A DNA stretch of 64,000 nt from Escherichia coli. GTDB taxonomy: Bacteria > Pseudomonadota > Gammaproteobacteria > Enterobacterales > Enterobacteriaceae. The stretch lies in the NCBI RefSeq assembly GCF_030013595.1, contig NZ_CP122768.1, one strand, 5' to 3'. The translations under genes and the position numbers were made by a program. Below are positions 17,355 to 59,477 of the stretch, one piece after another; the stretch's first letter is position 1; the number at the start of each line of letters is the position of its first letter. The notes beneath the pieces are model-generated. The model was not told where the DNA came from, did no database searches, and worked only from the letters and a program-made list of their open reading frames with translations.

Positions 17355-18072
17355 GAATAAATATCCTCCGGCATAGCCGGAGGTTTTTCAAATGCGCCTG
17401 TAAGGCTCTGTTACCAGCCGCGCCCTAACAGGCGCATACGATCTGACATTTGCATTCAACTTCGTTACTTACGGCCCGTAAACGGGCTGCCCGGATATGG
17501 AATCGATAACTGCTCCCCCATTTTATCCTCTTCAAGCTGGTGCTTTATGTAGTCCTGTATCTTCGCCGTGTTCTTACCCACCGTATCGACATAGTACCCT
17601 CGGCACCAGAACTCCCTGTTTCTGTATTTGAATTTCAAATCCCCAAACTGCTCGTAAAGCATCAGACTGCTTTTCCCTTTCAGATATCCCATAAAGCCGG
17701 ATACGCTCATTTTGGGTGGGATTTCCACAAGCATATGGATATGATCTGCGCAGCACTCTGCTTCCAGAATCCGTACGCTTTTCCACTCACACAGCTTTCT
17801 CAAAATACTGCCTATCGCCCTACGCTTCTCTCCGTAAAACGCCAGTCTTCGGTATTTCGGCGCAAAAACTATGTGATATTTACAGTTCCAGCGGGTGTGC
17901 GCTAAGCTCTTTTCGTCCCCCATTGGGACCCCCTTTTGATTTCTTGTTTGACACTTGCAGTTGCCAGACCGCAAGGTGTTTTAACAAATCAAAAGGGGTT
18001 TTAATAACTGGCTCAAAGCTGAAAGCTTTCCGGAACCCCCAGCCTAGCTGGGGGTTTTCTGTGCACAAATAA
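17355..18072 (-). mobile_element. IS200 copy (IS200/IS605 family); ends approximate (about +/-20 bp)
   Basis: Contains an IS200 tnpA. Subterminal hairpins AACCCCCAGC-cta-GCTGGGGGTT (18037-18059), ATGCGCCTGT...ACAGGCGCAT (17392-17433) and CCTCCGG-cata-GCCGGAGG (17363-17381). Size about 0.7 kb, as expected for IS200. Confidence 0.8.
17465..17923 (-). CDS. tnpA: IS200 Y1 (HUH) transposase TnpA
   Basis: 152 aa, MGDEKSLAHTRWNCKYHIVFAPKYRR...HIHMLVEIPP...YYVDTVG. HUH motif HIHML and catalytic Tyr region. Near-identical to Salmonella IS200 TnpA as I recall it. Confidence 0.95.
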   Translation of the reverse strand: MGDEKSLAHTRWNCKYHIVFAPKYRRLAFYGEKRRAIGSILRKLCEWKSVRILEAECCADHIHMLVEIPPKMSVSGFMGYLKGKSSLMLYEQFGDLKFKYRNREFWCRGYYVDTVGKNTAKIQDYIKHQLEEDKMGEQLSIPYPGSPFTGRK

Positions 18073-28195: not shown

Positions 28196-28223
28196 ATGCT
28201 CTGGATAAGAATTATCCAATTCT

Positions 28224-28328
28224 AAAAAAAAGCCCGAACGACTGTTCGGGCTTGTCTCATTATTTGTTGGATAAACAGTAACAAGGGTCCAACAGAAAAT
28301 AATCTTTGTGACAATAAAGGCATATAAC
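28224..28328 (-). ncRNA. micC: MicC sRNA (Hfq-dependent repressor of ompC)
   Basis: The minus strand starts GTTATATGCCTTTATTGTCACA (the MicC 5' seed as I recall it) and ends in AAGCCCGAACAGTCGTTCGGGCTTTTTTTT. It lies between ydbK and ompN, divergent from ompN, as in K-12. Confidence 0.85.
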
Positions 28329-28555
28329 CCGCGAAGAATAACGTATAGCAAATTAAAAGTATAATTTTTATTTTGTATGTATTATCTTCGATACATTCAC
28401 CAGACTTATTATCATTTCAGAAGAATTATTTGATTAAGGTTTTACTTAAGGCGTAACAAATGATATTTATCGGCTAACTGAACTTCTCCTTTAGGATGTT
28501 TTCACTCCCCGAAATGGGGATAAAAGGCAAATAAAATAACTAAAGGATTTATTCA

Positions 28556-35420: not shown

Positions 35421-36043
35421 TTTTGAATCACCGTTGTTGCACAGGAATAAATAAAAGGGAGTTTTACATATTTCTGGTCAATGGCATCTTTCAGAAAATA
35501 GCCTATGCCATCACCATACTCTGGTATCTGAATAGAAAAAACGCTGTCCGATACTGTCACACTCACATCAAAAGTGTGCTGCAACGGCGGGTCTATTCCG
35601 TTTTTTCCATGAATGAACCGCGCCACACGTCGCTTTAACCAGTCAATGCAGAAATGCGAACCGTCAGCCTTATAAAAATTCCACGTTAATATTCGTTTGA
35701 AATAATCATCAGGTACATACGATGCCTGCCCCGGAACGTAATTCCGCATTGCGGCATACGGGATCGTATTGTATTCAATGGTATCGTATGCGCCGCGTGC
35801 AATAGCCTCCTCGGAAACCTGTAGTAAAGGCCTTTCAACGCCATAAATCCCGAGTGCAATCCAGTCCAGCAATTGCCCGGTTATTGATTCCGATGTCCAG
35901 CATGGCAATGCCAGATTGTTGAGTGAATCGAGGTATTCCTGAGCAATTTCATTGTATGCATCAAAGAACGCAACAACATTCGGATCATCTCTGTACTGCA
36001 CAAATGGATAAGCAGGGAGAATTTTCTCAGTCAGATATTGCAT
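35417..36043 (-). CDS. baseplate/tail-fibre adaptor (gpI-position, DUF2612-like)
   Basis: 208 aa from MQYLTEKILPAYPF. This ATG overlaps the end of the J-like gene. The longer 244-aa reading is rejected. Confidence 0.6.
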   Translation of the reverse strand: MQYLTEKILPAYPFVQYRDDPNVVAFFDAYNEIAQEYLDSLNNLALPCWTSESITGQLLDWIALGIYGVERPLLQVSEEAIARGAYDTIEYNTIPYAAMRNYVPGQASYVPDDYFKRILTWNFYKADGSHFCIDWLKRRVARFIHGKNGIDPPLQHTFDVSVTVSDSVFSIQIPEYGDGIGYFLKDAIDQKYVKLPFIYSCATTVIQK

Positions 36044-37253
36044 ACTTGTTGACCTGAACCTGTGATGCCACCGTTGAAAAATAGGAATAGGTATCGCCAT
36101 AAACCAGGCTTGTGTCTTTTGCCGGAGGAACGATATGGCCGTTAATGCCAATGCTCACACTGATTGTTGAGATCAATGTTGCATCAACCAGCAATCTGAC
36201 GGAGCTGGTAAAAATATCCTGGATTCGCAGCAAATTTATCGGGTGACCGACTTCAATAGAATTGATGTAATCAGCAACGTTTTGTTGCACTGCCATAGCA
36301 ATACCCGCCGGATCAACATAATCATCAGACACCGTGTTCCAGGTGATTAGCACCATGACGTTTTGTGATGACGGGATAACGAACGGTACCTGATAAACGT
36401 CCGGCGAAACAGTTATTGAAACCGTGCGTTTTTCCACTGCCGCACCGGATGGATTGCTAACATCGTTGGTCAGTTTCGAAATATCCGGTACAGATTTGTA
36501 AATCGCATAAGCCACATCATACGGATCACCGCCACCAACAACCGCAACCCATTTCCCCAGCGACGACTGCCGGAAAGAAATCAGGTTTTCTCGCACACCG
36601 CTTACTGATTTGAGCATCGCTTTAAAGCAATCCGGTGTTCCCTGCACACCAAACATGCCGGACTCCATGACTTCGGCGCGGTAAGATGCCCACGTCTGCG
36701 CCTCCTGGCCGGGCATTCCTGCGGTAAGGTTCGTGCATTTTACAGGCTGGTCTTTGGGTACTGATGTGATGACCTGCGTCACGGTCCCTTCCGGTACAGC
36801 CCATGAGCCTGACGTAGTGGCCACACAGTAGACTGGCTCAGTCTGCCCGCTTTCCGGTACCACAGTATCGCGGGAAACCGCATACTGGTAGTTGCCGTCA
36901 CCGACAACAAATCCTTTAGGGATACCAAACCCCGGCAACGCCTCAAACACCACGTATACCGCCGTATTTGTACTTAATCCCTTCTGTGCTCCATAAATGT
37001 TTCCGAGTTGCATCAGTAACGGAATATTTGCGCCGTATGGGCTTACGGAGTTAATAAGGTCCACCCGCGCCTGGTCTATTAATGCCAGCGCCCCGACTGC
37101 CGTGCTGGCAAGGTCAGTAATAAGTCCCGCAGGAAGGTTGGCTGTATATCCAGGTACTTTTTCAGCAACTCTGGTGATAAGATTCGCAAGTAAGTCATTG
37201 GGTGGCGTAGGCTGCGCACCCGCACTGGTCATAGTAATTGGTATTTCTGACAT
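36027..37253 (-). CDS. baseplate wedge protein (gpJ-like)
   Basis: About 408 aa from MSEIPITM. Size and position are typical of baseplate J. Confidence 0.65.
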   Translation of the reverse strand: MSEIPITMTSAGAQPTPPNDLLANLITRVAEKVPGYTANLPAGLITDLASTAVGALALIDQARVDLINSVSPYGANIPLLMQLGNIYGAQKGLSTNTAVYVVFEALPGFGIPKGFVVGDGNYQYAVSRDTVVPESGQTEPVYCVATTSGSWAVPEGTVTQVITSVPKDQPVKCTNLTAGMPGQEAQTWASYRAEVMESGMFGVQGTPDCFKAMLKSVSGVRENLISFRQSSLGKWVAVVGGGDPYDVAYAIYKSVPDISKLTNDVSNPSGAAVEKRTVSITVSPDVYQVPFVIPSSQNVMVLITWNTVSDDYVDPAGIAMAVQQNVADYINSIEVGHPINLLRIQDIFTSSVRLLVDATLISTISVSIGINGHIVPPAKDTSLVYGDTYSYFSTVASQVQVNKYAISD

Positions 37254-37274
37254 AATTAATCTCAAGAGGATTTT

Positions 37275-37823
37275 ATGAAATTTAACTCATTAGGGATTTT
37301 GATTAGCTCACTGCTATTTTCTGGTGTTTCTCATGCAATTGATGCCACAGAGAGAATGAATGACATTCAACAGTTCGGTAAATGGTATTATGCTGAATTT
37401 ACCATGCCTACCACTATGGCTTATCGTATTGGTGTTGAATCCAAATTGCCGCAGGATAAATCAACTTTATTTATTGATATATCACCATTAACTCAATGTG
37501 AGCCCGGTGATGTAACTATCAATCATTTTATTGGATATAAACAAATGGATTTACCACCGTTCCTTCCTGTAAGTTATAAAATCAGCGGACAACAAAAGCA
37601 GGACTCTATAACAACCCCATCTATCAATGAGGGTTACTTGTTCAGTCCTATTAGCTCATTAAAGATTAGTGATTTGTTAAAAGCTAAAGGAAAAGGTAGT
37701 TTTTCTTTTTGGTACACTCCGCCAGCTGAAAGCAAAGAAAAACCACAAAAACTATTCTTCCCATTAGATGGCCTCCCGGAAGCATATAAAGCTGCAATCA
37801 ATTCCTGTAAAGAAAACATGTAA
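37275..37823 (+). CDS. secreted protein of unknown function (moron gene 1)
   Basis: 182 aa. SD AAGAGGA. Signal peptide MKFNSLGILISSLLFSGVSHA|ID. Two Cys. AT-rich by eye. Opposite strand to all flanking structural genes. Confidence 0.75.
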   Translation: MKFNSLGILISSLLFSGVSHAIDATERMNDIQQFGKWYYAEFTMPTTMAYRIGVESKLPQDKSTLFIDISPLTQCEPGDVTINHFIGYKQMDLPPFLPVSYKISGQQKQDSITTPSINEGYLFSPISSLKISDLLKAKGKGSFSFWYTPPAESKEKPQKLFFPLDGLPEAYKAAINSCKENM

Positions 37824-37841
37824 AATCAGGCGGTGATATTT

Positions 37842-38306
37842 ATGAAATTGAAATTTTTATCCCTACTTCTTTTTGTGAGCTTTTCTTCACACTCATCTAA
37901 CATATCAAGAATAATATGTAAGCCATCTAATAGCAACGACACCGCAACCTCCGCAATCTGGCCCCAACCTTACCTTTTAAATGATAAATTATGCTTTAAT
38001 ATTAGAATTGACTCTGGAAATGCATGTGTTGCCGATGGTAAAAAAACAACGTGGTTTACTGAATCAGTAATTATAATGCAAAACAACGAATCATTAGGCC
38101 GTGATGATACTTGGTTTAGAGTCAATCGCCCAACAATTAATGACCTACGTATAGAATATACTGTCGAGGCATCTAGGGATAAAGTTAATTGGATTCCTCA
38201 ATCTCACGTAACTATTAATCGGATTTCTGGAGAAGCTATTGATTGGGCGATTTATGAACACGGCGGAACGTCTTACCAGTGCCATCTTGAGGGCAAAAAG
38301 ATATGA
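37842..38306 (+). CDS. secreted Cys-containing protein of unknown function (moron gene 2)
   Basis: 154 aa from the ATG at 37842 (the ORF track starts at GTG 37833). Signal peptide MKLKFLSLLLFVSFSSHS|SN. Starts 18 nt after gene 1. AT-rich. Confidence 0.7.
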   Translation: MKLKFLSLLLFVSFSSHSSNISRIICKPSNSNDTATSAIWPQPYLLNDKLCFNIRIDSGNACVADGKKTTWFTESVIIMQNNESLGRDDTWFRVNRPTINDLRIEYTVEASRDKVNWIPQSHVTINRISGEAIDWAIYEHGGTSYQCHLEGKKI

Positions 38307-38432
38307 TGCACTATCATTAAATTGACTACGGCATCCAACTCTGGCTACAATCCGAACTGAGGCGTCGAAACCTCTTACAAGCGGTACGCAACCAACCCCG
38401 TCAGTGTTGGATTTTTTATGCCTATTTTTTCA

Positions 38433-38455
38433 GTGGTTGCATCATGTGCAACCAC
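38433..38455. promoter_or_regulatory. perfect 9-bp inverted repeat (candidate operator) upstream of the AntA-like gene
   Basis: GTGGTTGCA-tcatg-TGCAACCAC, 130 nt upstream of the ATG at 38586. Confidence 0.5.
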
Positions 38456-38585
38456 ATCCCCGATCAATGTCGGGAGGGCGACGAATACAACACCCGAAAG
38501 GGGAATAAGTCCGCGGTACTTGTAGCCGTTTCGAACCTCCCGACGCCACTTTGGTTCTTCTTCGAAAAAGATACAAGAGGTCATC

Positions 38586-39149
38586 ATGACAACCCAACTG
38601 ATCCCCGTTTTCAACGGAACTATCTCAAACGAAACCATCCTTCTATGCAACGCTCGCGATCTGCATGCCTTTCTCGAAGTAGGTAAGCGCTTTGCCACTT
38701 GGATCACCGAGCGACTTAGCGAGTATGAATTCGTAGAAAATCAGGACTATGTGATTGCTTCCCAAATTCGGGAAGCAAAAGGCCGGGGAGGCCACAACCG
38801 CAAGGACTACCACCTCACCCTAGATACCGCCAAAGAGCTGGCAATGGTTGAGCGCAACGAAAAAGGCCGCCAGATCCGCCGATACTTCATCGAGTGCGAG
38901 AAGAAGCTGCGCGAAGATACCACCAGCACACAATCCCCTCTGAATGTTGACATCATCATGCGCGTCAGAAACGGCTCAGTTACCCACATTGAGCACCACA
39001 AATCAGGCTCAGTTATCACCACAGAATGGGCAATTCACTTACTACGCAAAAGTGGATGGATTGTCATGCCACGCGATGAACTTCTTAACACGCCACTGGC
39101 CCAACTGATGCCCGAAAGCTTGCCTCAAACCGGAACCTGCGTCCGGTAA
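38586..39149 (+). CDS. AntA/AntB-type phage antirepressor-like protein
   Basis: 187 aa. N-terminal AntA-type sequence ARDLHAFLEVGKRFATWITERLSEYEFVENQDY ... DYHLTLDTAKELAMVERNEKGRQIRRYFIECEKKL. Confidence 0.8.
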   Translation: MTTQLIPVFNGTISNETILLCNARDLHAFLEVGKRFATWITERLSEYEFVENQDYVIASQIREAKGRGGHNRKDYHLTLDTAKELAMVERNEKGRQIRRYFIECEKKLREDTTSTQSPLNVDIIMRVRNGSVTHIEHHKSGSVITTEWAIHLLRKSGWIVMPRDELLNTPLAQLMPESLPQTGTCVR

Positions 39150-39472
39150 CTGGTCCCATTAAAAAACACAACATCGATGTTATAGGTGGGGTTCTCTGCC
39201 CCATCTACCTTTGAAATTGCCAGCGATGCAAAATACCCGGCAAACTGTTGCTGAACCATGTTCACATAGTAGTCCGGGTAAATCTGCTGCACGATGCACT
39301 GCTGCGCTGGAATGCCGTAATTCGCGTAAAACGGCGACTCCCCCAACCCCAGCTTTAACGTCTGAATGAGCGTCGTCAGCCAGCCGTAGGAGAAATCACC
39401 GTTGGCGTCAGATTCTACAGCAACCCATTTTTTGTTGCCGTTCGCGTCGGTGACGCGGCCCCATGTTCTCAT
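39125..39472 (-). CDS. small baseplate protein (gpW position)
   Basis: 115 aa in the position preceding J in the operon order. Its 3' end overlaps the convergent AntA-like gene by 25 nt. Confidence 0.55.
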   Translation of the reverse strand: MRTWGRVTDANGNKKWVAVESDANGDFSYGWLTTLIQTLKLGLGESPFYANYGIPAQQCIVQQIYPDYYVNMVQQQFAGYFASLAISKVDGAENPTYNIDVVFFNGTSYRTQVPV

Positions 39473-39475
39473 GCG

Positions 39476-39640
39476 TCAACCTTTCAAGTAAATTAGGGTA
39501 CCGGTAGCCAGAGCGGTACAAATGATCCACGCTACTGGAGTCAGAATATGCCGAATACCCTGACATACTGCGATTATTCTCGCAGCCTTATCAGCTCCTT
39601 GTGGGGTTGTCTCAGCCTTAAGAATCAGTTCGCTATCCAT
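39476..39640 (-). CDS. 54-aa membrane ORF (small ORF B)
   Basis: MDSELILKAETTPQGADKAARIIAVCQGIRHILTPVAWIICTALATGTLIYLKG. C-terminal TM. Its ATG overlaps the stop of ORF A, and its stop lies 3 nt before the next gene. Too short for the ORF track. Confidence 0.5.
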   Translation of the reverse strand: MDSELILKAETTPQGADKAARIIAVCQGIRHILTPVAWIICTALATGTLIYLKG

Positions 39641-39925: not shown

Positions 39926-40639
39926 TTAACCCGGATTTGGTTTCTTTGACGTGATCGTGCTGTTGCCGCTTTGAACCCCAGTCACATCGTGGCTGTGACC
40001 GCTGGCGCTGACACCTTTTATCATCGCGTCGTTTTGCACAGTAAGCGGGCCAATCAGCGAAGCGGTTGTATCCTTCATCTGGGCTTTGTCCTGGACGATC
40101 GGTCCGTTGAGGTGAATTTTCCCGTTCAGGAAAATATCTTCGGCCTCGAGGTAAACAGCTTTCGACTTTTGCCTGATTTCTTCCGGTGCCACCGTTACCG
40201 AGCTACTGCCGTCCTCTGTTTTGAGGATCGCGCCATCCGGACCGTACAAAACGATCTTTTGCGGATCTTCGTCGGACCAGTCCTTGTTTGCCAGTGGCAC
40301 GAAAAACAGTGGAGTGAGCGACATCGAGTAAGAGAGCGTCGCCATACCGGTTCCCAATCCGGACACACCGCGCAGGGATACATCAGCGGCAATTGTTACT
40401 CCTCGATCGCCCGGCTGTATCGGGTAACGAATATACGGGAATGTGGCGACAGGGATTGTTATCTGCGGAAAGTTGATCCCCTCCGGCAGCATATCAAACT
40501 GAACTGTCACTATCTGCCCGCTGACACCGACAACATGGCAGGGCAATTCACGACCTTTAAGCTCGGCTTGCTGGTTACCAGAACTGGTCATCATCTCCGA
40601 CAGCGTTCGGAGAAACGGTAATTTTTGAGCGTTTGACAT
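39926..40639 (-). CDS. baseplate central spike (gpV / Gp138-N-like)
   Basis: 237 aa. OB-fold-like N-terminal part and a C-terminal beta-helix/apex with an HSHD motif. Position after the hub. Confidence 0.65.
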   Translation of the reverse strand: MSNAQKLPFLRTLSEMMTSSGNQQAELKGRELPCHVVGVSGQIVTVQFDMLPEGINFPQITIPVATFPYIRYPIQPGDRGVTIAADVSLRGVSGLGTGMATLSYSMSLTPLFFVPLANKDWSDEDPQKIVLYGPDGAILKTEDGSSSVTVAPEEIRQKSKAVYLEAEDIFLNGKIHLNGPIVQDKAQMKDTTASLIGPLTVQNDAMIKGVSASGHSHDVTGVQSGNSTITSKKPNPG

Positions 40640-41646
40640 TACACCCTCGCCCAGTTCTCAGCATATGCCTCAAATACCGTCACCCAGGCATCGCCATCGG
40701 CTGTCAGATACGAACCAATGTGTCTGACCGATTTCACAAGAAATTTCCCGGTGAACGTGGTCGAATTTTTTGCGATAACGCTGGGTGCCGTTGTATTAGC
40801 CATCACAATCGACGCAGCACCTGAATATAGCCCCTCCGGCAGTTTAACCACATCACCACATCTGATATCGCCCCTCATAGGGCATTTGAAGCTGACGGTA
40901 AACGGCGCTATCCATGTCGGCTGCCCGACCAGTTCATGGGCATGAATTGTTTTTGGCTCACCCCACTTTGCCGATGCGTTATCGTAGATTCGTATTCTGT
41001 CGGAAAGAATACTGATGGCGATTCCGCTGTATTTCTCATCGCGCATCATTGCAATTGAAGCACTACGGAGGACCATAGCCAGCGAACCAATATCTTCGTA
41101 GGTTCCATTCCACGGTTCCGGCAAAACGAGGCTGTCGCTGACAGTACAATCGATCAACTTATTCGGAAATGCCTTTTGCAACGCACGGGAGATTACATCA
41201 CCAACCTTTTCCCCTTTAAGCCCCTCCCCCTCGATAGAGAACGGTTTACCATCATCTGTTTTGCGTACGGTTGGATTTATTACCAGGTTTAAGGTCTGGT
41301 TCGTGCCGATCCAGTTGGCATAGGCTAGATAAATTTCGCCATAAATAACCTCACCCTGTTGCTGTGGATTTGCCAAAGGCAATCCCTCAACAAAGCCCGC
41401 TTTCATACGGACCAGACACCCCTGCAAACTCACGCTTTGCTTCAGCATGTCGATAGGCAAACCGTATATTGTGAGCATCGTTCCTGAATTCACTACATCA
41501 AGACCCGCTACCTCCACATCAAATTCAACATGTAGCCCACACCCGGGGGTTTTACTGGTATCAAAAGGCCCGATAGGTTTACCGTTGCAATCCACTGGCG
41601 GCTTGCCTGTTTTAGGATTGATGATTTCCAGTCGGTAATAGCGCAT
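40639..41646 (-). CDS. baseplate hub / tail protein (gpD position)
   Basis: 335 aa between the tape-measure-proximal genes and the spike. ATG/stop overlaps on both sides. Confidence 0.55.
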   Translation of the reverse strand: MRYYRLEIINPKTGKPPVDCNGKPIGPFDTSKTPGCGLHVEFDVEVAGLDVVNSGTMLTIYGLPIDMLKQSVSLQGCLVRMKAGFVEGLPLANPQQQGEVIYGEIYLAYANWIGTNQTLNLVINPTVRKTDDGKPFSIEGEGLKGEKVGDVISRALQKAFPNKLIDCTVSDSLVLPEPWNGTYEDIGSLAMVLRSASIAMMRDEKYSGIAISILSDRIRIYDNASAKWGEPKTIHAHELVGQPTWIAPFTVSFKCPMRGDIRCGDVVKLPEGLYSGAASIVMANTTAPSVIAKNSTTFTGKFLVKSVRHIGSYLTADGDAWVTVFEAYAENWARV

Positions 41647-52366: not shown

Positions 52367-53180
52367 GTTTGCCCTTCTCCGTTAAAAATTCGTCGGGTAG
52401 TTTCTGAGGGGCGTAGATCGGCAGAGCATCGCAACTGCAATAAACCTCCTCCCCGGCAGCAGTGATTTCGTCATAAAAACCATATACGGGCTTAATAAGC
52501 CCCTGCTCCAGCGCCCACGAATCGCGGAGGAGATAAATTTTCTCGTCGCGCTCTTTGTGGTCCTGTCGGTATTTGTAGCCCGGACGCCGCCAGTTCGAAT
52601 GCCAGCGCAGAGCAATCGCACCACTCTGAACAGCCAGCAGATATTTAACGTTGCTCGCCAGCTTATGTCCCTGGTCAATAGCCACCCGGCGACTGATAAA
52701 ATCCATATCCTTCACGGACTTCTGAAAACCGGACTTCACTTCCCGGCGATCTATTTCGCTCACCCCGTCAGGTGGAATGGACGTAACCCACCCCTGAAAA
52801 CGCTGTATGGTTTTCTCGATGGCCTGTTCGCGGTTGAGTTTTATCAGGTTGGCACTGGCGAAAATTCGCCTGTCGAGTTCCTTGCGAAACTCAGGTTTCA
52901 GTTTTTCAACAGTGATTTTTTTAGGGCCGTCAGGAGGCTGATCCCGTAATGCCCCGCCGTCGATGACAAGACGGCTGTAGATAGCGGTGAGATGTTTTCT
53001 GGCTACGGTATCATCTGGGGTTTCTCGCTGAGCGGCTACACGGAGTTTCCGGCACCATTCGAGCAATGATTTTTCGCTATCCCACCCGTGATTTACGTAG
53101 TAGTTAACGGCATCCGTCAGAACCTCATACAGCGTCCTGATCCGTTTCTTCTTCCTCCCCGCCCGGCTGGAAATTGCCAT
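52347..53180 (-). CDS. head morphogenesis / minor head protein
   Basis: About 277 aa from MAISSRAGRKKKRI. The longer reading overlaps the portal gene by about 190 nt and is rejected. Confidence 0.55.
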   Translation of the reverse strand: MAISSRAGRKKKRIRTLYEVLTDAVNYYVNHGWDSEKSLLEWCRKLRVAAQRETPDDTVARKHLTAIYSRLVIDGGALRDQPPDGPKKITVEKLKPEFRKELDRRIFASANLIKLNREQAIEKTIQRFQGWVTSIPPDGVSEIDRREVKSGFQKSVKDMDFISRRVAIDQGHKLASNVKYLLAVQSGAIALRWHSNWRRPGYKYRQDHKERDEKIYLLRDSWALEQGLIKPVYGFYDEITAAGEEVYCSCDALPIYAPQKLPDEFLTEKGKREFNRA

Positions 53181-54564
53181 CAGGCGTCTCCTGCTTCGGT
53201 GGTTCATAATTCGCCAGCGCGTCCACATCAATGATGAGTGGAGCTTCGCCATAGGTTTGCGTGGCATTAACAAGGCTTGCCAGCCATTCAGTGACGGCGG
53301 CACGGTTTTCAGGATCAACCTGTGGCGACACGGCAGAAAAAAGTGCTATCGCCTGTTGAATCACTTTACTGTCGCTTTCCCGGCGTTTGTCCGGCGACTC
53401 CTCCACCAGCTCCTGCCACGTCGCGGTAAACTCGCGCCGCCACTGGTAAAACGTGGTTTTATAGTCCTCGGTTATGATGTCCGGGTAATCATTTTTCAGC
53501 GACTGATAAAATTCCTCGTTCCAGGCGATGTACTGCACCAGGCGTTCGAAATAATCCATCACAGGTTCAATCTGCTGGCGTACACCATCGATATACTGGC
53601 TGATGGCTTTCGAGTCCTCCTTACCTTCACCGAATCCGTTACTGAATGCTTCTTCCTTGATAATAATGGCCGGAACGTCACTCCCGGCGGCAATATCAGC
53701 AATGATATTGTCGCGGGCAGTATTCAGCGCCCCGTCGATGTTTTGCAGGTTCAGTGAACTTACGTCTTCGTCTTTTCCAATACTCAACACGCCTTTATTT
53801 TTGGCGGCTTTCACGTTTTCCCTTTTACGCCCCGTGGCAGCAGCCATGATCCCGTCCATTTTCGAACCGTTCTGCACAACTTTAGCTACCAGTACGCCCG
53901 CTTTCTGACTAACGAGATCATTCGCCTCCATCGTGTTGATATAGGATTTCAGGGAATAAAGAACGCGCTGAAACACACTTCGTCCGGTGAATCCGAACGA
54001 TGAACTCTGAAACTCCAGATAAATCGGTGTGCCGTTGAAGATTTTCAGTGTGCGTGACGGATGCCAGTCTTTTCCGCCAATCTTCAGCCTTTTGTTGGCT
54101 TCCTGGAAAAACGGACTGTTTGGGTTCTGGTCAGTCACCATCGAACCGGAAGCGTTCAACGGATCCCACGCGTTGATATACACATCCTCTTCTGTCAGCC
54201 CGAATGTCGGAAGCGGCTCACGACATGAAACACTGTCGGTGCCCACGCCGATCGCTGCAGCACCGTAGCAACGAGACAGAAAAAACAGATTTTTTATCTT
54301 CTCGTTGACCCTCATACGTTCCCATACCTCCTGGAAACGCCGTACAACCCTCTCGTCAGGATCTGTCTCCACGTTATACTGTCGCGGCTTACACATCGCC
54401 ATCAGTATGGGTTTTTCGACAAGTTTTCCGCCCAGAGGATGGAATTGCCACAGCAGCTTACACAATTCATAGCCAATATCGGTTCCCGGCTGAATTTCTT
54501 CAGCCTCAAGAATACGCATCAGTGCTGAACCGAGGCCGCCAGTAATCTCGATCTCTGCCATCAA
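53125..54564 (-). CDS. portal protein
   Basis: 479 aa immediately after TerL. Acidic C-terminus. Typical size. Confidence 0.75.
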   Translation of the reverse strand: MMAEIEITGGLGSALMRILEAEEIQPGTDIGYELCKLLWQFHPLGGKLVEKPILMAMCKPRQYNVETDPDERVVRRFQEVWERMRVNEKIKNLFFLSRCYGAAAIGVGTDSVSCREPLPTFGLTEEDVYINAWDPLNASGSMVTDQNPNSPFFQEANKRLKIGGKDWHPSRTLKIFNGTPIYLEFQSSSFGFTGRSVFQRVLYSLKSYINTMEANDLVSQKAGVLVAKVVQNGSKMDGIMAAATGRKRENVKAAKNKGVLSIGKDEDVSSLNLQNIDGALNTARDNIIADIAAGSDVPAIIIKEEAFSNGFGEGKEDSKAISQYIDGVRQQIEPVMDYFERLVQYIAWNEEFYQSLKNDYPDIITEDYKTTFYQWRREFTATWQELVEESPDKRRESDSKVIQQAIALFSAVSPQVDPENRAAVTEWLASLVNATQTYGEAPLIIDVDALANYEPPKQETPDGNFQPGGEEEETDQDAV

Positions 54565-58318: not shown

Positions 58319-58888
58319 TCAATCCGTCTTTGTGATTTTTCCTTTGCCTGTATCAGCCAGGACAAAATCAATCAGCAGATTCGCTTCATTTATCAACGTG
58401 CGAATTTTTGATACATGTGCAGCTTTAACCGACTTCCACTCACTCAGCCCGGTACCAAACAAACTGGCGATGTTTTTATCCCGTTTCATGTCAGCGCATA
58501 CCTGATTGAGTTCTTCCATCACGCTCATTCGACGGGGATTAACGACAAAACCCTTCGTCCAGTATTCATAGAGAACATCGTCGCACTCTTCCTGATACTG
58601 AATGACCCTGTCGCGGATTTCAGGTTTAACTTTGTTGGGATTGATGGTTTGTAACCAGCCCGCAAGTTTTCGAAGTGGCAGGGATACCATATTGCGTCGT
58701 TTCCCATCCTCAGCAACCATAACGATTTCCGTTATAGTTGACGCAAAACGCTGTCTTAACTTAGCCAACTGTGATTGCCAGGCTAGCCCCATCCCCGCAA
58801 CAACAGGCTTCATGTGAACGTATGGCTCGCCATTATGGTTAACCACATAAAGAGAGTTGCCGTGAAACGGCACGGTCATCATATTCAT
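58319..58888 (-). CDS. P22 Ant N-terminal-domain (P22_AR_N) antirepressor-like protein
   Basis: 189 aa. [34 protein letters not shown]...[37 protein letters not shown] resembles the P22 Ant N-terminal domain. SD AAGGA. Confidence 0.8.
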
Positions 58889-58997
58889 CGGTTATTTCCT
58901 TTTAGTGATGAACCTTGTCTCACAGGAATCCGGCCCACAGAAAAGCACCGATAGCCAAACCGGTATCCTCAAGGGTCATCCTGAAAGGTTCTGTGTT

Positions 58998-59019
58998 GTG
59001 AGATGCGCGTGAGATGCGC
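58998..59019. repeat. perfect tandem 11-mer (GTGAGATGCGC x2)
   Basis: Direct duplication between the endolysin terminator and the Ant-like gene. Confidence 0.9.
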
Positions 59020-59035
59020 AGAAATATTCAGATAT

Positions 59036-59061
59036 GAAAAAGCCCACGCCTTTACGTGGGC
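59036..59061 (-). terminator. intrinsic terminator after the endolysin gene, inside the lysis cassette
   Basis: Minus strand: GCCCACG-taaagg-CGTGGGC followed by TTTTTC. Confidence 0.75.
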
Positions 59062-59099
59062 CAGAAGGCCACTCGTTGCAGCCTTGTGTTTTGTTTTTT

Positions 59100-59477
59100 T
59101 TATCGTTTCAACTGAAAGTGAGGCCCGTCCTTCAACGTTTTCCAGTCCCCGCCCCATTCGATGGCGATTCCCAGCTCTGTGGCGGCCTGCTTAAATGCCT
59201 GCGCGATTTTCTCGTACAGAGGCCAGTTCCATGACACCTGGCTGCCAATGTAAGCAACAACATCCACCGCATCACCTGTCAGGTGGCGGCTGTTCATGGT
59301 CTGGCTCTTGCCTTCTGCAACCAGTTGTTTCTGGCGCTCTTTCGTGCGCAGACCTTCCGTAATACCGAAATCAACCTCCGTCAGCTCCAGCGCACGGCGA
59401 ACGACAGCAACCAGCTGTGGTTTTACGCCCTCCAGATTTTTCTCGCTCCGACGGCTGAATCTGAATTTACCCGACAT
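59100..59477 (-). CDS. endolysin, peptidase M15 (L-alanyl-D-glutamate / VanY-like) family
   Basis: 125 aa from the ATG at 59477 (SD GGAGGTG). Zn-ligand pattern SRHLTGDAVDV ... DGPHFQL. Confidence 0.8.
   Translation of the reverse strand: MSGKFRFSRRSEKNLEGVKPQLVAVVRRALELTEVDFGITEGLRTKERQKQLVAEGKSQTMNSRHLTGDAVDVVAYIGSQVSWNWPLYEKIAQAFKQAATELGIAIEWGGDWKTLKDGPHFQLKR

Follow-up and report, generated by a model that had tools for sequence, protein, structure and literature searches.

A candidate RNA-based immunity module in the leader of a prophage antA-type gene, with an sRNA-Xcc1 family RNA in the position of C4

Introduction

In the immI regions of phages P1 and P7, the small RNA C4, a substrate of RNase P (PMC3378863), is excised and represses the antirepressor gene ant in trans (PMC3378863, PMC8546580). 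The GenBank record of phage P1 lists, in order, the promoter P1c4, the sites a1 and b1, the 77-nt C4 RNA, the sites a2 and b2, and icd-ant, with a2 and b2 annotated for 'repression of icd ant translation'. The loop of C4 helix P3 is the partner of b2 (GUUAGUGA), which overlaps the Shine-Dalgarno sequence (SD), and the junction segment J3/1 is that of a2 (UUGACAG). C4 is a three-way junction with a tetraloop on P2 and a 3' ACC tail, and scores 68.8 bits with its covariance model (RF01695). Upstream of it lie a hairpin with a1 in the loop, b1 followed by CGG, and a stem with a U-run; this part matches the Rfam families c4-a1b1 and isrK, the stem and U-run being matched by isrK. Here we analyze the 279-nt leader of an antA-like antirepressor gene in a prophage of Escherichia coli, at positions 38307-38585 of a 64,000-nt stretch of contig NZ_CP122768.1 (the window). 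An RNA of the sRNA-Xcc1 family lies in this leader in the place that C4 has in phage P1, and it is complementary to the antA ribosome-binding site (RBS).

The sRNA-Xcc1 family (RF02221) has been described in other terms. In Xanthomonas campestris it was found by Northern blot and rapid amplification of cDNA ends as a discrete 88-nt RNA (PMC2996969), and a copy in E. coli EDL933 was abundant, with a ribosome coverage of 0.02 (PMC5331693). The published EDL933 coordinate, 1392052, corresponds to the hok/sok locus in NZ_CP008957 (L247, 1390300-1393300), where there is no Xcc1 match; the study probably used a different assembly, and we cite its figure without genomic context. Copies have been noted upstream of symE in Xanthomonas integron cassettes (bioRxiv 2025.06.18.660453) and of an ORF6N gene in APSE phages (bioRxiv 2020.03.17.996009). 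The family is picked up by automated Rfam-based annotation (e.g., Bakta), and is discussed as a virulence small RNA (sRNA), even as plant-delivered cargo, without a validated target. In the searchable sRNA-Xcc1 literature, whose coverage excludes Chen et al. 2011, we found no mention of complementarity to an adjacent RBS, of an upstream copy of the target or of a parallel to C4. The RNA family is known and the window copy is a clear member; what appears to be new is the C4/immI-type antisense control on a different RNA scaffold that is proposed here.

Results

An sRNA-Xcc1 family RNA in the antA leader

The gene downstream of the leader (38586-39149, + strand, 187 amino acids) matches Pfam AntA/AntB (PF08346; 94.1 bits against a cut-off of 27, E = 8e-27, residues 22-91) and PHROG anti-repressor families (5e-74), and RefSeq names it 'antA/AntB antirepressor family protein'. 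These matches bear out the AntA/AntB-type assignment, and our coordinates confirm the leader length of 279 nt, that an initial annotation had made from the letters alone. Inactivation of a phage repressor is the putative function that family-level annotation assigns to the product, and antA is the putative regulated gene of the leader.

At 38469-38552 (+), the leader matches the covariance model of sRNA-Xcc1 over its full length (model positions 1-87 of 87), with 78.0 bits against a gathering score of 53 (E = 6e-14); the same match is obtained in a scan of the whole window, and RefSeq annotates no RNA at this place. The element is an 84-nt three-way junction. Its closing helix P1 is formed by two 9-mers, GTCGGGAGG (38469-38477) and CCTCCCGAC (38536-38544). 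The same pair had been reported, with the second arm at about 38537, as a potential stem-loop of about 75 nt: the 9-mers do pair and enclose 76 nt, yet what they close is the three-way junction rather than a simple stem-loop. Helix P2 has the conserved internal loop AAUACAA (AAUACAA...GAAUA) and a GAAA tetraloop, and P3 is a short hairpin with the loop ACUUGUA (38518-38524). The single-stranded segment J3/1, UUUCGAA (38529-38535), lies between P3 and the 3' arm of helix P1. The tail after P1 is GCCA, and in most homologous loci NCC follows P1.

By itself, a long-range 9-mer pair arises in 88 of 2000 shuffles of the leader. It is the Rfam covariance-model match, together with conservation in homologous loci, that indicates that the leader features are not due to chance. 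Two other identities were considered and set aside. A tRNA- or tmRNA-like element, suspected from the GCCA after P1, was ruled out, as ARAGORN predicts none in the window. Membership in the C4 (RF01695), c4-a1b1 (RF03163) or isrK (RF01394) families was rejected, since their covariance models give no match in 37000-39600 even at E <= 10.

Complementarity to the ribosome-binding site and to upstream sites

The P3 loop and J3/1, both single-stranded in the RNA, each have a complementary site further along the same transcript, and the more 3' of these two sites overlaps the RBS. Site 2a (UUCGAAA, 38561-38567, +) is complementary to J3/1 over 7 nt. Site 2b (UACAAG, 38572-38577, +), separated from it by 4 nt, is complementary to CUUGUA of the P3 loop and overlaps the SD AGAGG (38576-38580), 9 nt before the antA ATG. 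A second copy of both target sites, like a1 and b1 of phage P1, is present upstream of the RNA. There, site 1a (GUCGAAAC, 38364-38371) is displayed in the loop of hairpin H1 (GAGG/CCTC, 38359-38374, +), and its UCGAAAC (38365-38371) is complementary to GUUUCGA of the J3/1 region (38528-38534) over 7 nt; site 1b (UACAAG, 38376-38381, +) is again the complement of CUUGUA in the P3 loop and is followed by a conserved CGG.

To ask how general these complementarities are, homologs were collected by an exact pattern from the conserved P2 region, first in IMG/VR and then in one genome per GTDB species. The viral set comprises 63 IMG/VR and phage loci with distinct combinations of loop and J3/1 (58 different loops), and the genome set 56 further independent loci from bacterial genomes. 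The register between loop and target differs among loci, so column-based covariation was replaced by permutation tests that compare cognate with non-cognate complementarity, taken as the longest Watson-Crick run (10,000 permutations in the viral set). As homologs were retrieved by the P2 pattern, conservation of P2 is no evidence; the tests of loop and target are independent of the pattern.

The loops track their own targets closely. In the viral set, the mean run between the loop and the region from -34 to -1 of its own locus is 6.13 nt, versus 3.62 nt at other loci (z = 22; 0 of 10,000 permutations), and J3/1 gives z = 12 for the same region; the upstream region gives z = 17.6 for the loop and 6.3 for J3/1. 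In the genome set, the corresponding values are 9.6 (loop) and 5.5 (J3/1) for the RBS region, and 21.2 and 11.5 for the upstream region. At the RBS, 45 of the 63 viral loci have a loop complement of at least 6 Watson-Crick nt, with a median end position of -10 relative to the start codon. For the J3/1 target the median end position is -21, and wherever both targets are present (35 of 35 loci) that of J3/1 is the more 5' one, the order demanded by antiparallel pairing. The upstream loop complement reaches at least 6 nt in 49/63 loci, about 90 nt before P1, and CGG or CGT comes next in 44 of these 49.

Individual phages illustrate how the code changes as a set. In the Shiga toxin (Stx) phage TL-2011c, the loop UCUUUUGG pairs with CCAAAGGA at the SD with one G-U, CUUUUGGG, one nucleotide further 3' in the loop, pairs with the upstream CCCAAAAG, and J3/1 (UUUCGAG) is complementary to CUCGAAA at both the SD-side and the upstream sites. 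In Vibrio phage VaK, the loop GCUUAUG pairs with CAUAAGC upstream, and its CUUAUG with CAUAAG at the SD.

Two subfamilies depart from this layout. In Xanthomonadales loci (Xanthomonas, Rhodanobacter, Dyella and relatives; L128, L133, L142, L155, L181, L190, L193, L201, L202, L232), a perfect 8-nt complement of the P3 loop occurs only upstream, at about -80. We searched these loci for a second complement at the RBS and over several kb on both strands and found none; the downstream leader has instead a conserved hairpin and GGAAUGAGGAGG. The RNA must have a different role in this group, or act through the upstream site alone. IMG/VR loci such as L005, L008, L027 and L123 form a high-GC subfamily in which the RNA is followed by a promoter-like sequence, TTGACG.... 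The loop of this RNA, CAUGCGG, has the complement CCGCAU(G) in three of the four loci examined and only CCGCA in L005, about 6-10 nt before the ATG of an open reading frame (ORF) of about 85 amino acids without an obvious SD. With a promoter-like sequence between them, RNA and target could belong to separate transcripts, and the RNA may then act in trans.

Layout of the leader upstream of the RNA

A putative sigma-70-like promoter, TTGACT-18 nt-TACAAT (38322-38351, +; 10/12 matches in a consensus scan), is predicted to start the leader transcript at about 38358. Its hexamers are kept as TTGACG/TATACT in TL-2011c, and TTGAC-type -35 hexamers stand at the equivalent place in VaK and in several homologous loci (read by eye). 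Hairpin H1, directly downstream, is paired in 96.7% across 15 homologs. After site 1b comes a terminator-like hairpin, CCAAC-cccgucagu-GUUGG, with six U residues (38392-38417, +), at which transcripts may terminate. Its stem and T-run are near-invariant in the E. coli subfamily, where only position 45/60 varies (A-U to G-U), and they occur in nearly all homologous loci. The hairpin loop (38397-38405) contains a conserved motif, (A)CCCGUCAG or CCCGAUAG, also in most of the homologous loci. The CGG after site 1b could form a pseudoknot with the CCG of this loop; both are nearly invariant, so covariation is no test of it. A perfect palindrome (38433-38455, +), considered below, lies between this attenuator-like element and the RNA.

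Downstream genes, tandem modules and distribution

The genes that follow the RNA are almost all of antirepressor type. Among the 63 loci, the first ORF after the RNA contains KilA-N (17), P22_AR_C (12), Rha (9), Bro-N (9), AntA (7), P22_AR_N (6) or ORF6N (6), all of them N-terminal modules that can replace one another in phage proteins of the antirepressor type. At least 159 of 5,426 complete E. coli genomes contain the leader, many Stx-phage carriers among them. The core motif of the RNA extends to Gamma-, Beta- and Alphaproteobacteria and Desulfovibrionaceae, and to metagenome-assembled genomes assigned to Acidobacteriota, Bacteroidota, Planctomycetota and Verrucomicrobiota.

The C4-type and Xcc1-type elements are found side by side. 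Several elements carry isrK-C4 and Xcc1 modules in tandem, all on one strand (L034, 2422-3753; L050, 2362-3141; L068, 843-1672; and L002, Stx phage GER2, 1909-2693), and TL-2011c (L001, 3608-4232) has two Xcc1 modules, each with its own loop and target code. These tandem modules look like arrays of RNA-controlled antirepressor-type genes. Across 15 homologous loci, the c4-a1b1 and isrK models match only beside C4 copies, never upstream of Xcc1 copies.

Proposed mechanism and alternatives

We consider it probable that the antA leader is an RNA-based immunity module built like P1 immI, with an sRNA-Xcc1-type RNA replacing C4. The constitutive-looking promoter would start a transcript near 38358 whose first ~60 nt carry site 1, with site 1a in a hairpin loop followed by UACAAG, and which may end at the weak terminator-like hairpin and U-run. 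RNA that reads through would contain a spacer hairpin formed by the palindrome, then the 84-nt three-way junction, then site 2 over the antA SD. The P3 loop and J3/1 would pair with site 2, either as an excised RNA of ~80-90 nt acting in trans or in cis, and this pairing would occlude the antA RBS, so that Ant would not be made in the lysogen. Site 1 would most likely be a competitor that sets the level of free antisense RNA, either as a decoy on a short RNA like IsrK or as an intramolecular partner; alternatively, it may be a termination-control site. Each element has its own loop and target sequence, and the great diversity of loops implies element-specific repression, private to each element as in the heteroimmunity of P1 and P7. 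An excised form is supported by the 88-nt species of X. campestris, the RCCA after helix P1 and the abundance of the EDL933 copy without ribosome binding. Excision might be due to RNase P, as a P1 helix followed by GCCA/RCCA is reminiscent of RNase P substrates and thus suggestive. The initial annotation had seen no cognate small repressor gene nearby; indeed no ribbon-helix-helix (RHH) or helix-turn-helix (HTH) ORF adjoins antA, but the likely cognate repressor is the sRNA-Xcc1-type RNA that covaries with the antA RBS.

Several observations weigh against this proposal. The window contains no C4, c4-a1b1 or isrK match at E <= 10. The terminator-like hairpin is weak (5 bp with a 9-nt loop) and fails a simple terminator scan because of its 9-nt loop. 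Folding of the RNA, which had been suggested as a check, recovers helix P1 and the palindrome hairpin but not the consensus P2 and P3 when single sequences are used, and folding of the whole leader gives unstable long-range pairings; single-sequence folding is therefore left out as evidence for the three-way junction. The duplexes in the window are short (6 and 7 bp), and the RBS complement is below 6 nt in 18 of the 63 viral loci. Finally, the Xanthomonadales subgroup, which by taxon (Xanthomonas spp.) should include the founding type of the family, has the upstream site only. RBS occlusion thus cannot be what the RNA does throughout the family, and its main partner may be site 1.

This last point also favors termination control as in phage P4, in which the RNA would pair with site 1 of nascent transcripts and promote or prevent termination at the U-run, with RBS pairing secondary. 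Site 1 is the more universal partner, with the strongest covariation in the genome set, and is the only site in the Xanthomonadales loci; site 1b abuts the conserved CGG and the terminator-like hairpin, and P4 CI/seqA/seqC has been described as a structural homolog of the IsrK system (PMC4825925). However, a second site on the SD, present in the window and in 45/63 viral loci, suits a translational block and would be needless for termination control, and a2 and b2 of phage P1 are annotated as translational targets. Termination control is rather unlikely to be the main mechanism, although action at the attenuator in the manner of P4 CI is to be taken seriously as an alternative or an addition, and it is compatible with RBS occlusion. 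If the three-way junction folded only within the mRNA, with the loop forming a pseudoknot with the SD 45 nt downstream and no excised RNA acting in trans, the position of site 2 just 9-33 nt past the RNA would be accounted for, and complementarity and covariation fit cis and trans action equally. We nevertheless judge a purely cis-acting leader improbable: in X. campestris, sRNA-Xcc1 has been mapped as a discrete species of 88 nt (PMC2996969), C4 is trans-acting (PMC8546580), RCC(A) comes after helix P1, a trait shared with the RNase P substrate C4, and the promoter-like sequence between RNA and complementary site in the high-GC subfamily would require trans action. That the RNA targets host (or plant-host) mRNAs, with its place beside antA incidental, is scarcely credible to us. 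It has been published as a trans-acting, virulence-associated sRNA with many predicted targets (PMC2996969, PMC12189769), but these targets are computational predictions, the loop is highly variable (58 variants in 63 loci) and tracks adjacent sites locus by locus, which is unexpected for a conserved host target, and the neighbors are consistently antirepressor-type genes.

The palindrome GTGGTTGCA-tcatg-TGCAACCAC (as RNA, GUGGUUGCA-ucaug-UGCAACCAC) had been described as operator-like, and it is exactly the perfect 9-bp inverted repeat with a 5-nt spacer that was claimed. It might be the operator of a dedicated protein repressor of antA transcription, Mnt/Arc-like or the prophage repressor. 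A perfect 9-bp repeat with a spacer of 3-10 nt is rare in dinucleotide shuffles of the leader (14 of 2000), though 24 are present in the whole window, so that on its own the palindrome is only mildly to moderately unusual. In 15 E. coli-type homologs, the outer GUG/CAC (GTG/CAC in DNA) and inner GC/GC pairs are kept, a symmetric conservation that, like the symmetric changes between them, would also fit a co-evolving operator. However, 87.9% of cells in these homologs are paired and three of the nine pairs are changed on both sides, the center varying by G-C to A-U exchanges and several U-G pairs. Pairing is thus kept while the sequence changes, which fits an RNA hairpin (-15.3 kcal/mol, z = -5.3) better than a protein operator. 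In alignment A3, read by eye, the stem accommodates about seven U-G wobbles and no A-C mismatch, an asymmetry that follows the transcribed strand, and the central pair is usually mismatched. The palindrome lies ~75-97 nt downstream of the predicted transcript start, past the terminator-like element and away from the promoter. Unrelated hairpins occupy its position in other subfamilies and in phage P1, and no further copies or half-sites beyond chance were found within the 64 kb. A search of the window for P22-type control gave no small RHH/HTH repressor ORF adjacent to antA and no operator overlapping the promoter. The operator explanation is thus very improbable; we take the palindrome to be a hairpin of the precursor RNA, perhaps with a role in folding insulation or processing. 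The conservation in homologous prophages on which the initial annotation had made its proposal depend is seen both for the pairing of the palindrome, with varying sequence, and for the 9-mer helix (RF02221).

Prophage setting

The region is 100% identical in the chromosome of E. coli O141:H4 strain P13-6 and several porcine enterotoxigenic E. coli strains, and Escherichia phage Rac-SA53 is 96% identical to it. The prophage starts just past uspF, with MicC and ompN/uspF forming the chromosomal flank. Four other Rfam matches in the window exceed their gathering scores: sok antitoxin (268-419), RydC (969-1032), STnc490 (17933-18056) and MicC (28216-28331). The antA module sits inside the minus-strand tail/baseplate cluster (baseplate J at 36027-37265, hub at 40639-41646), into which three plus-strand genes are inserted, antA being the third, as had been noted. 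As also stated before, antA ends 25 nt inside a convergent ORF of 115 amino acids (39125-39472, - strand), which is part of the baseplate cluster and lies outside the control module. Its description as a W-position baseplate gene is backed by gene order and size only: a Pfam search gave no match, and its PHROG, 7986, has no assigned function.

The two plus-strand ORFs upstream of the module, 37275-37823 and 37833-38306, have hydrophobic, signal-peptide-like N-termini, and their only matches are to PHROGs 31333 and 26680, neither with an assigned function. Related prophages have other genes in their place (e.g., an LprI-family lysozyme inhibitor) or copies interrupted by insertion sequences while the antA module stays, and the two ORFs look like exchangeable moron cargo. 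A second antirepressor gene of the same prophage lies among the lysis genes (58320-58889, - strand; RefSeq 'phage antirepressor N-terminal domain-containing protein'). Its leader of ~210 nt (within 58320-59100, -) has a hairpin, then a strong terminator-like hairpin with a U-run, then CAUAUCU, which also occurs in some Xcc1-type leaders, and a further hairpin; a long helix sequesters the SD (z = -3.2). With no match to Rfam families, it could be a third type of RNA-controlled ant leader. RefSeq also lists an 'anti-CBASS protein Acb1 family protein' (53127-54563, -), encoded next to genes of the terminase and portal region.

Discussion

The sRNA-Xcc1 family is an orphan family, and the antA leader offers a candidate local target for it: the RBS of the adjacent antirepressor-type gene, with a matched upstream site, which can be tested by compensatory mutations. 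If the proposal is true, the C4 scheme would no longer be confined to a few plasmid-prophages but would reach lambdoid Stx phages, the baseplate-bearing type of prophage seen here, Vibrio siphophages and many other bacterial lineages, and would exist on at least two RNA scaffolds, side by side. Control of antirepressors bears on prophage induction and therefore, in Stx phages, on toxin release. The private codes of loops and targets would also be a natural set of orthogonal RNA repressor-target pairs.

On a wider view, sRNA-Xcc1 elements could form a second class of C4-like immunity RNAs, distinct in structure and far wider in distribution: three-part switches gating toxic DNA-binding proteins, with the P2 loop as sensor. 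The three parts would be the antisense RNA, a decoy in the form of a short 5' RNA with the same targets, and the RBS target, each switch with a private code. The gated proteins would include Ant, KilA-N, Bro-N, ORF6N and SymE, in phages, integron cassettes and islands of many lineages, and the conserved P2 internal loop, absent in C4, would sense a protein or small molecule that decides on release of the antisense RNA. This wider view is a speculation that we think unlikely to hold.

Comparison with known systems

The likeness between the window and P1/P7 immI (RF01695 and c4-a1b1 RF03163, clan CL00128) covers the entire order of elements, from the promoter and the upstream pair of targets through a terminator-like hairpin, a small hairpin and an RNA of ~80 nt to the downstream pair of targets at the RBS and the antirepressor operon. 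Like C4, the window RNA has a closing helix P1, a tetraloop on P2, a P3 loop that pairs with the SD-overlapping site, a single-stranded J3/1 segment that pairs with a more 5' site, and a 3' tail (ACC in C4). In both, the upstream site is followed by CGG, and the cassette lies on the opposite strand inside a tail/baseplate gene cluster. Such an opposite-strand cassette is seen in three unrelated phage types, namely this prophage (37275-39149), Vibrio anguillarum siphophages (L003/L004, 2400-3650) and phage P1 (L125, 6100-9600). The two systems differ in that helix P1 has 9-10 bp in the window and 17 bp in C4, in the conserved P2 internal loop, which C4 does not have, and in the spacing of the downstream sites, which are 4 nt apart in the window and 22 nt apart in phage P1. 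In contrast to phage P1, ant follows the RNA without an intervening icd-like ORF, and no C1-type operator is evident at the window promoter. As the C4, c4-a1b1 and isrK models miss the window, what is shared with P1 immI is a common architecture and logic rather than demonstrated homology.

Compared with the sRNA-Xcc1 literature, in which the RNA is a trans-acting, virulence-linked sRNA of unknown target, the window copy has local RBS complementarity, and it has the RBS site that the sampled Xanthomonadales loci lack. The IsrK/STnc1160/orf45-anrP locus of Salmonella Gifsy-1 resembles the proposed module in several respects (PMC4825925). There, the leader of an antirepressor operon has a leaky terminator at which a short RNA ends. 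The mRNA made by read-through is silent in translation, a stable RNA that arises by processing is located downstream, and the short RNA acts in trans on the long one, in this case by activating the read-through antirepressor mRNA. Unlike in our reading of the window, the switch documented in Gifsy-1 is one between alternative mRNA folds, and translational coupling there requires an upstream ORF. The P4 CI RNA with seqA and seqC (PMC4825925) is likewise a processed small RNA between two complementary copies that controls downstream prophage genes, but it acts by premature transcription termination rather than RBS occlusion, and its RNA structure is different. P22 immI shares with the window a dedicated control of ant that is in part an RNA complementary to the ant RBS. 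The CB RNA of phage N15 is grouped with P4 CI as an RNA between two complementary copies.

The initial annotation had looked to P22, with Mnt, Arc and an antisense RNA, for the kind of control to expect at antA. The leader does contain control elements, and the suggestion of an RNA stands. However, P22 sar is transcribed from the opposite strand and is a true cis-antisense RNA, unlike the window RNA, and control in P22 is exerted mainly by two RHH repressors with promoter operators, none of which was found at the window antA. Thus, the closest model for the antA leader is P1/P7 immI with its C4 RNA, not P22 Mnt/Arc.

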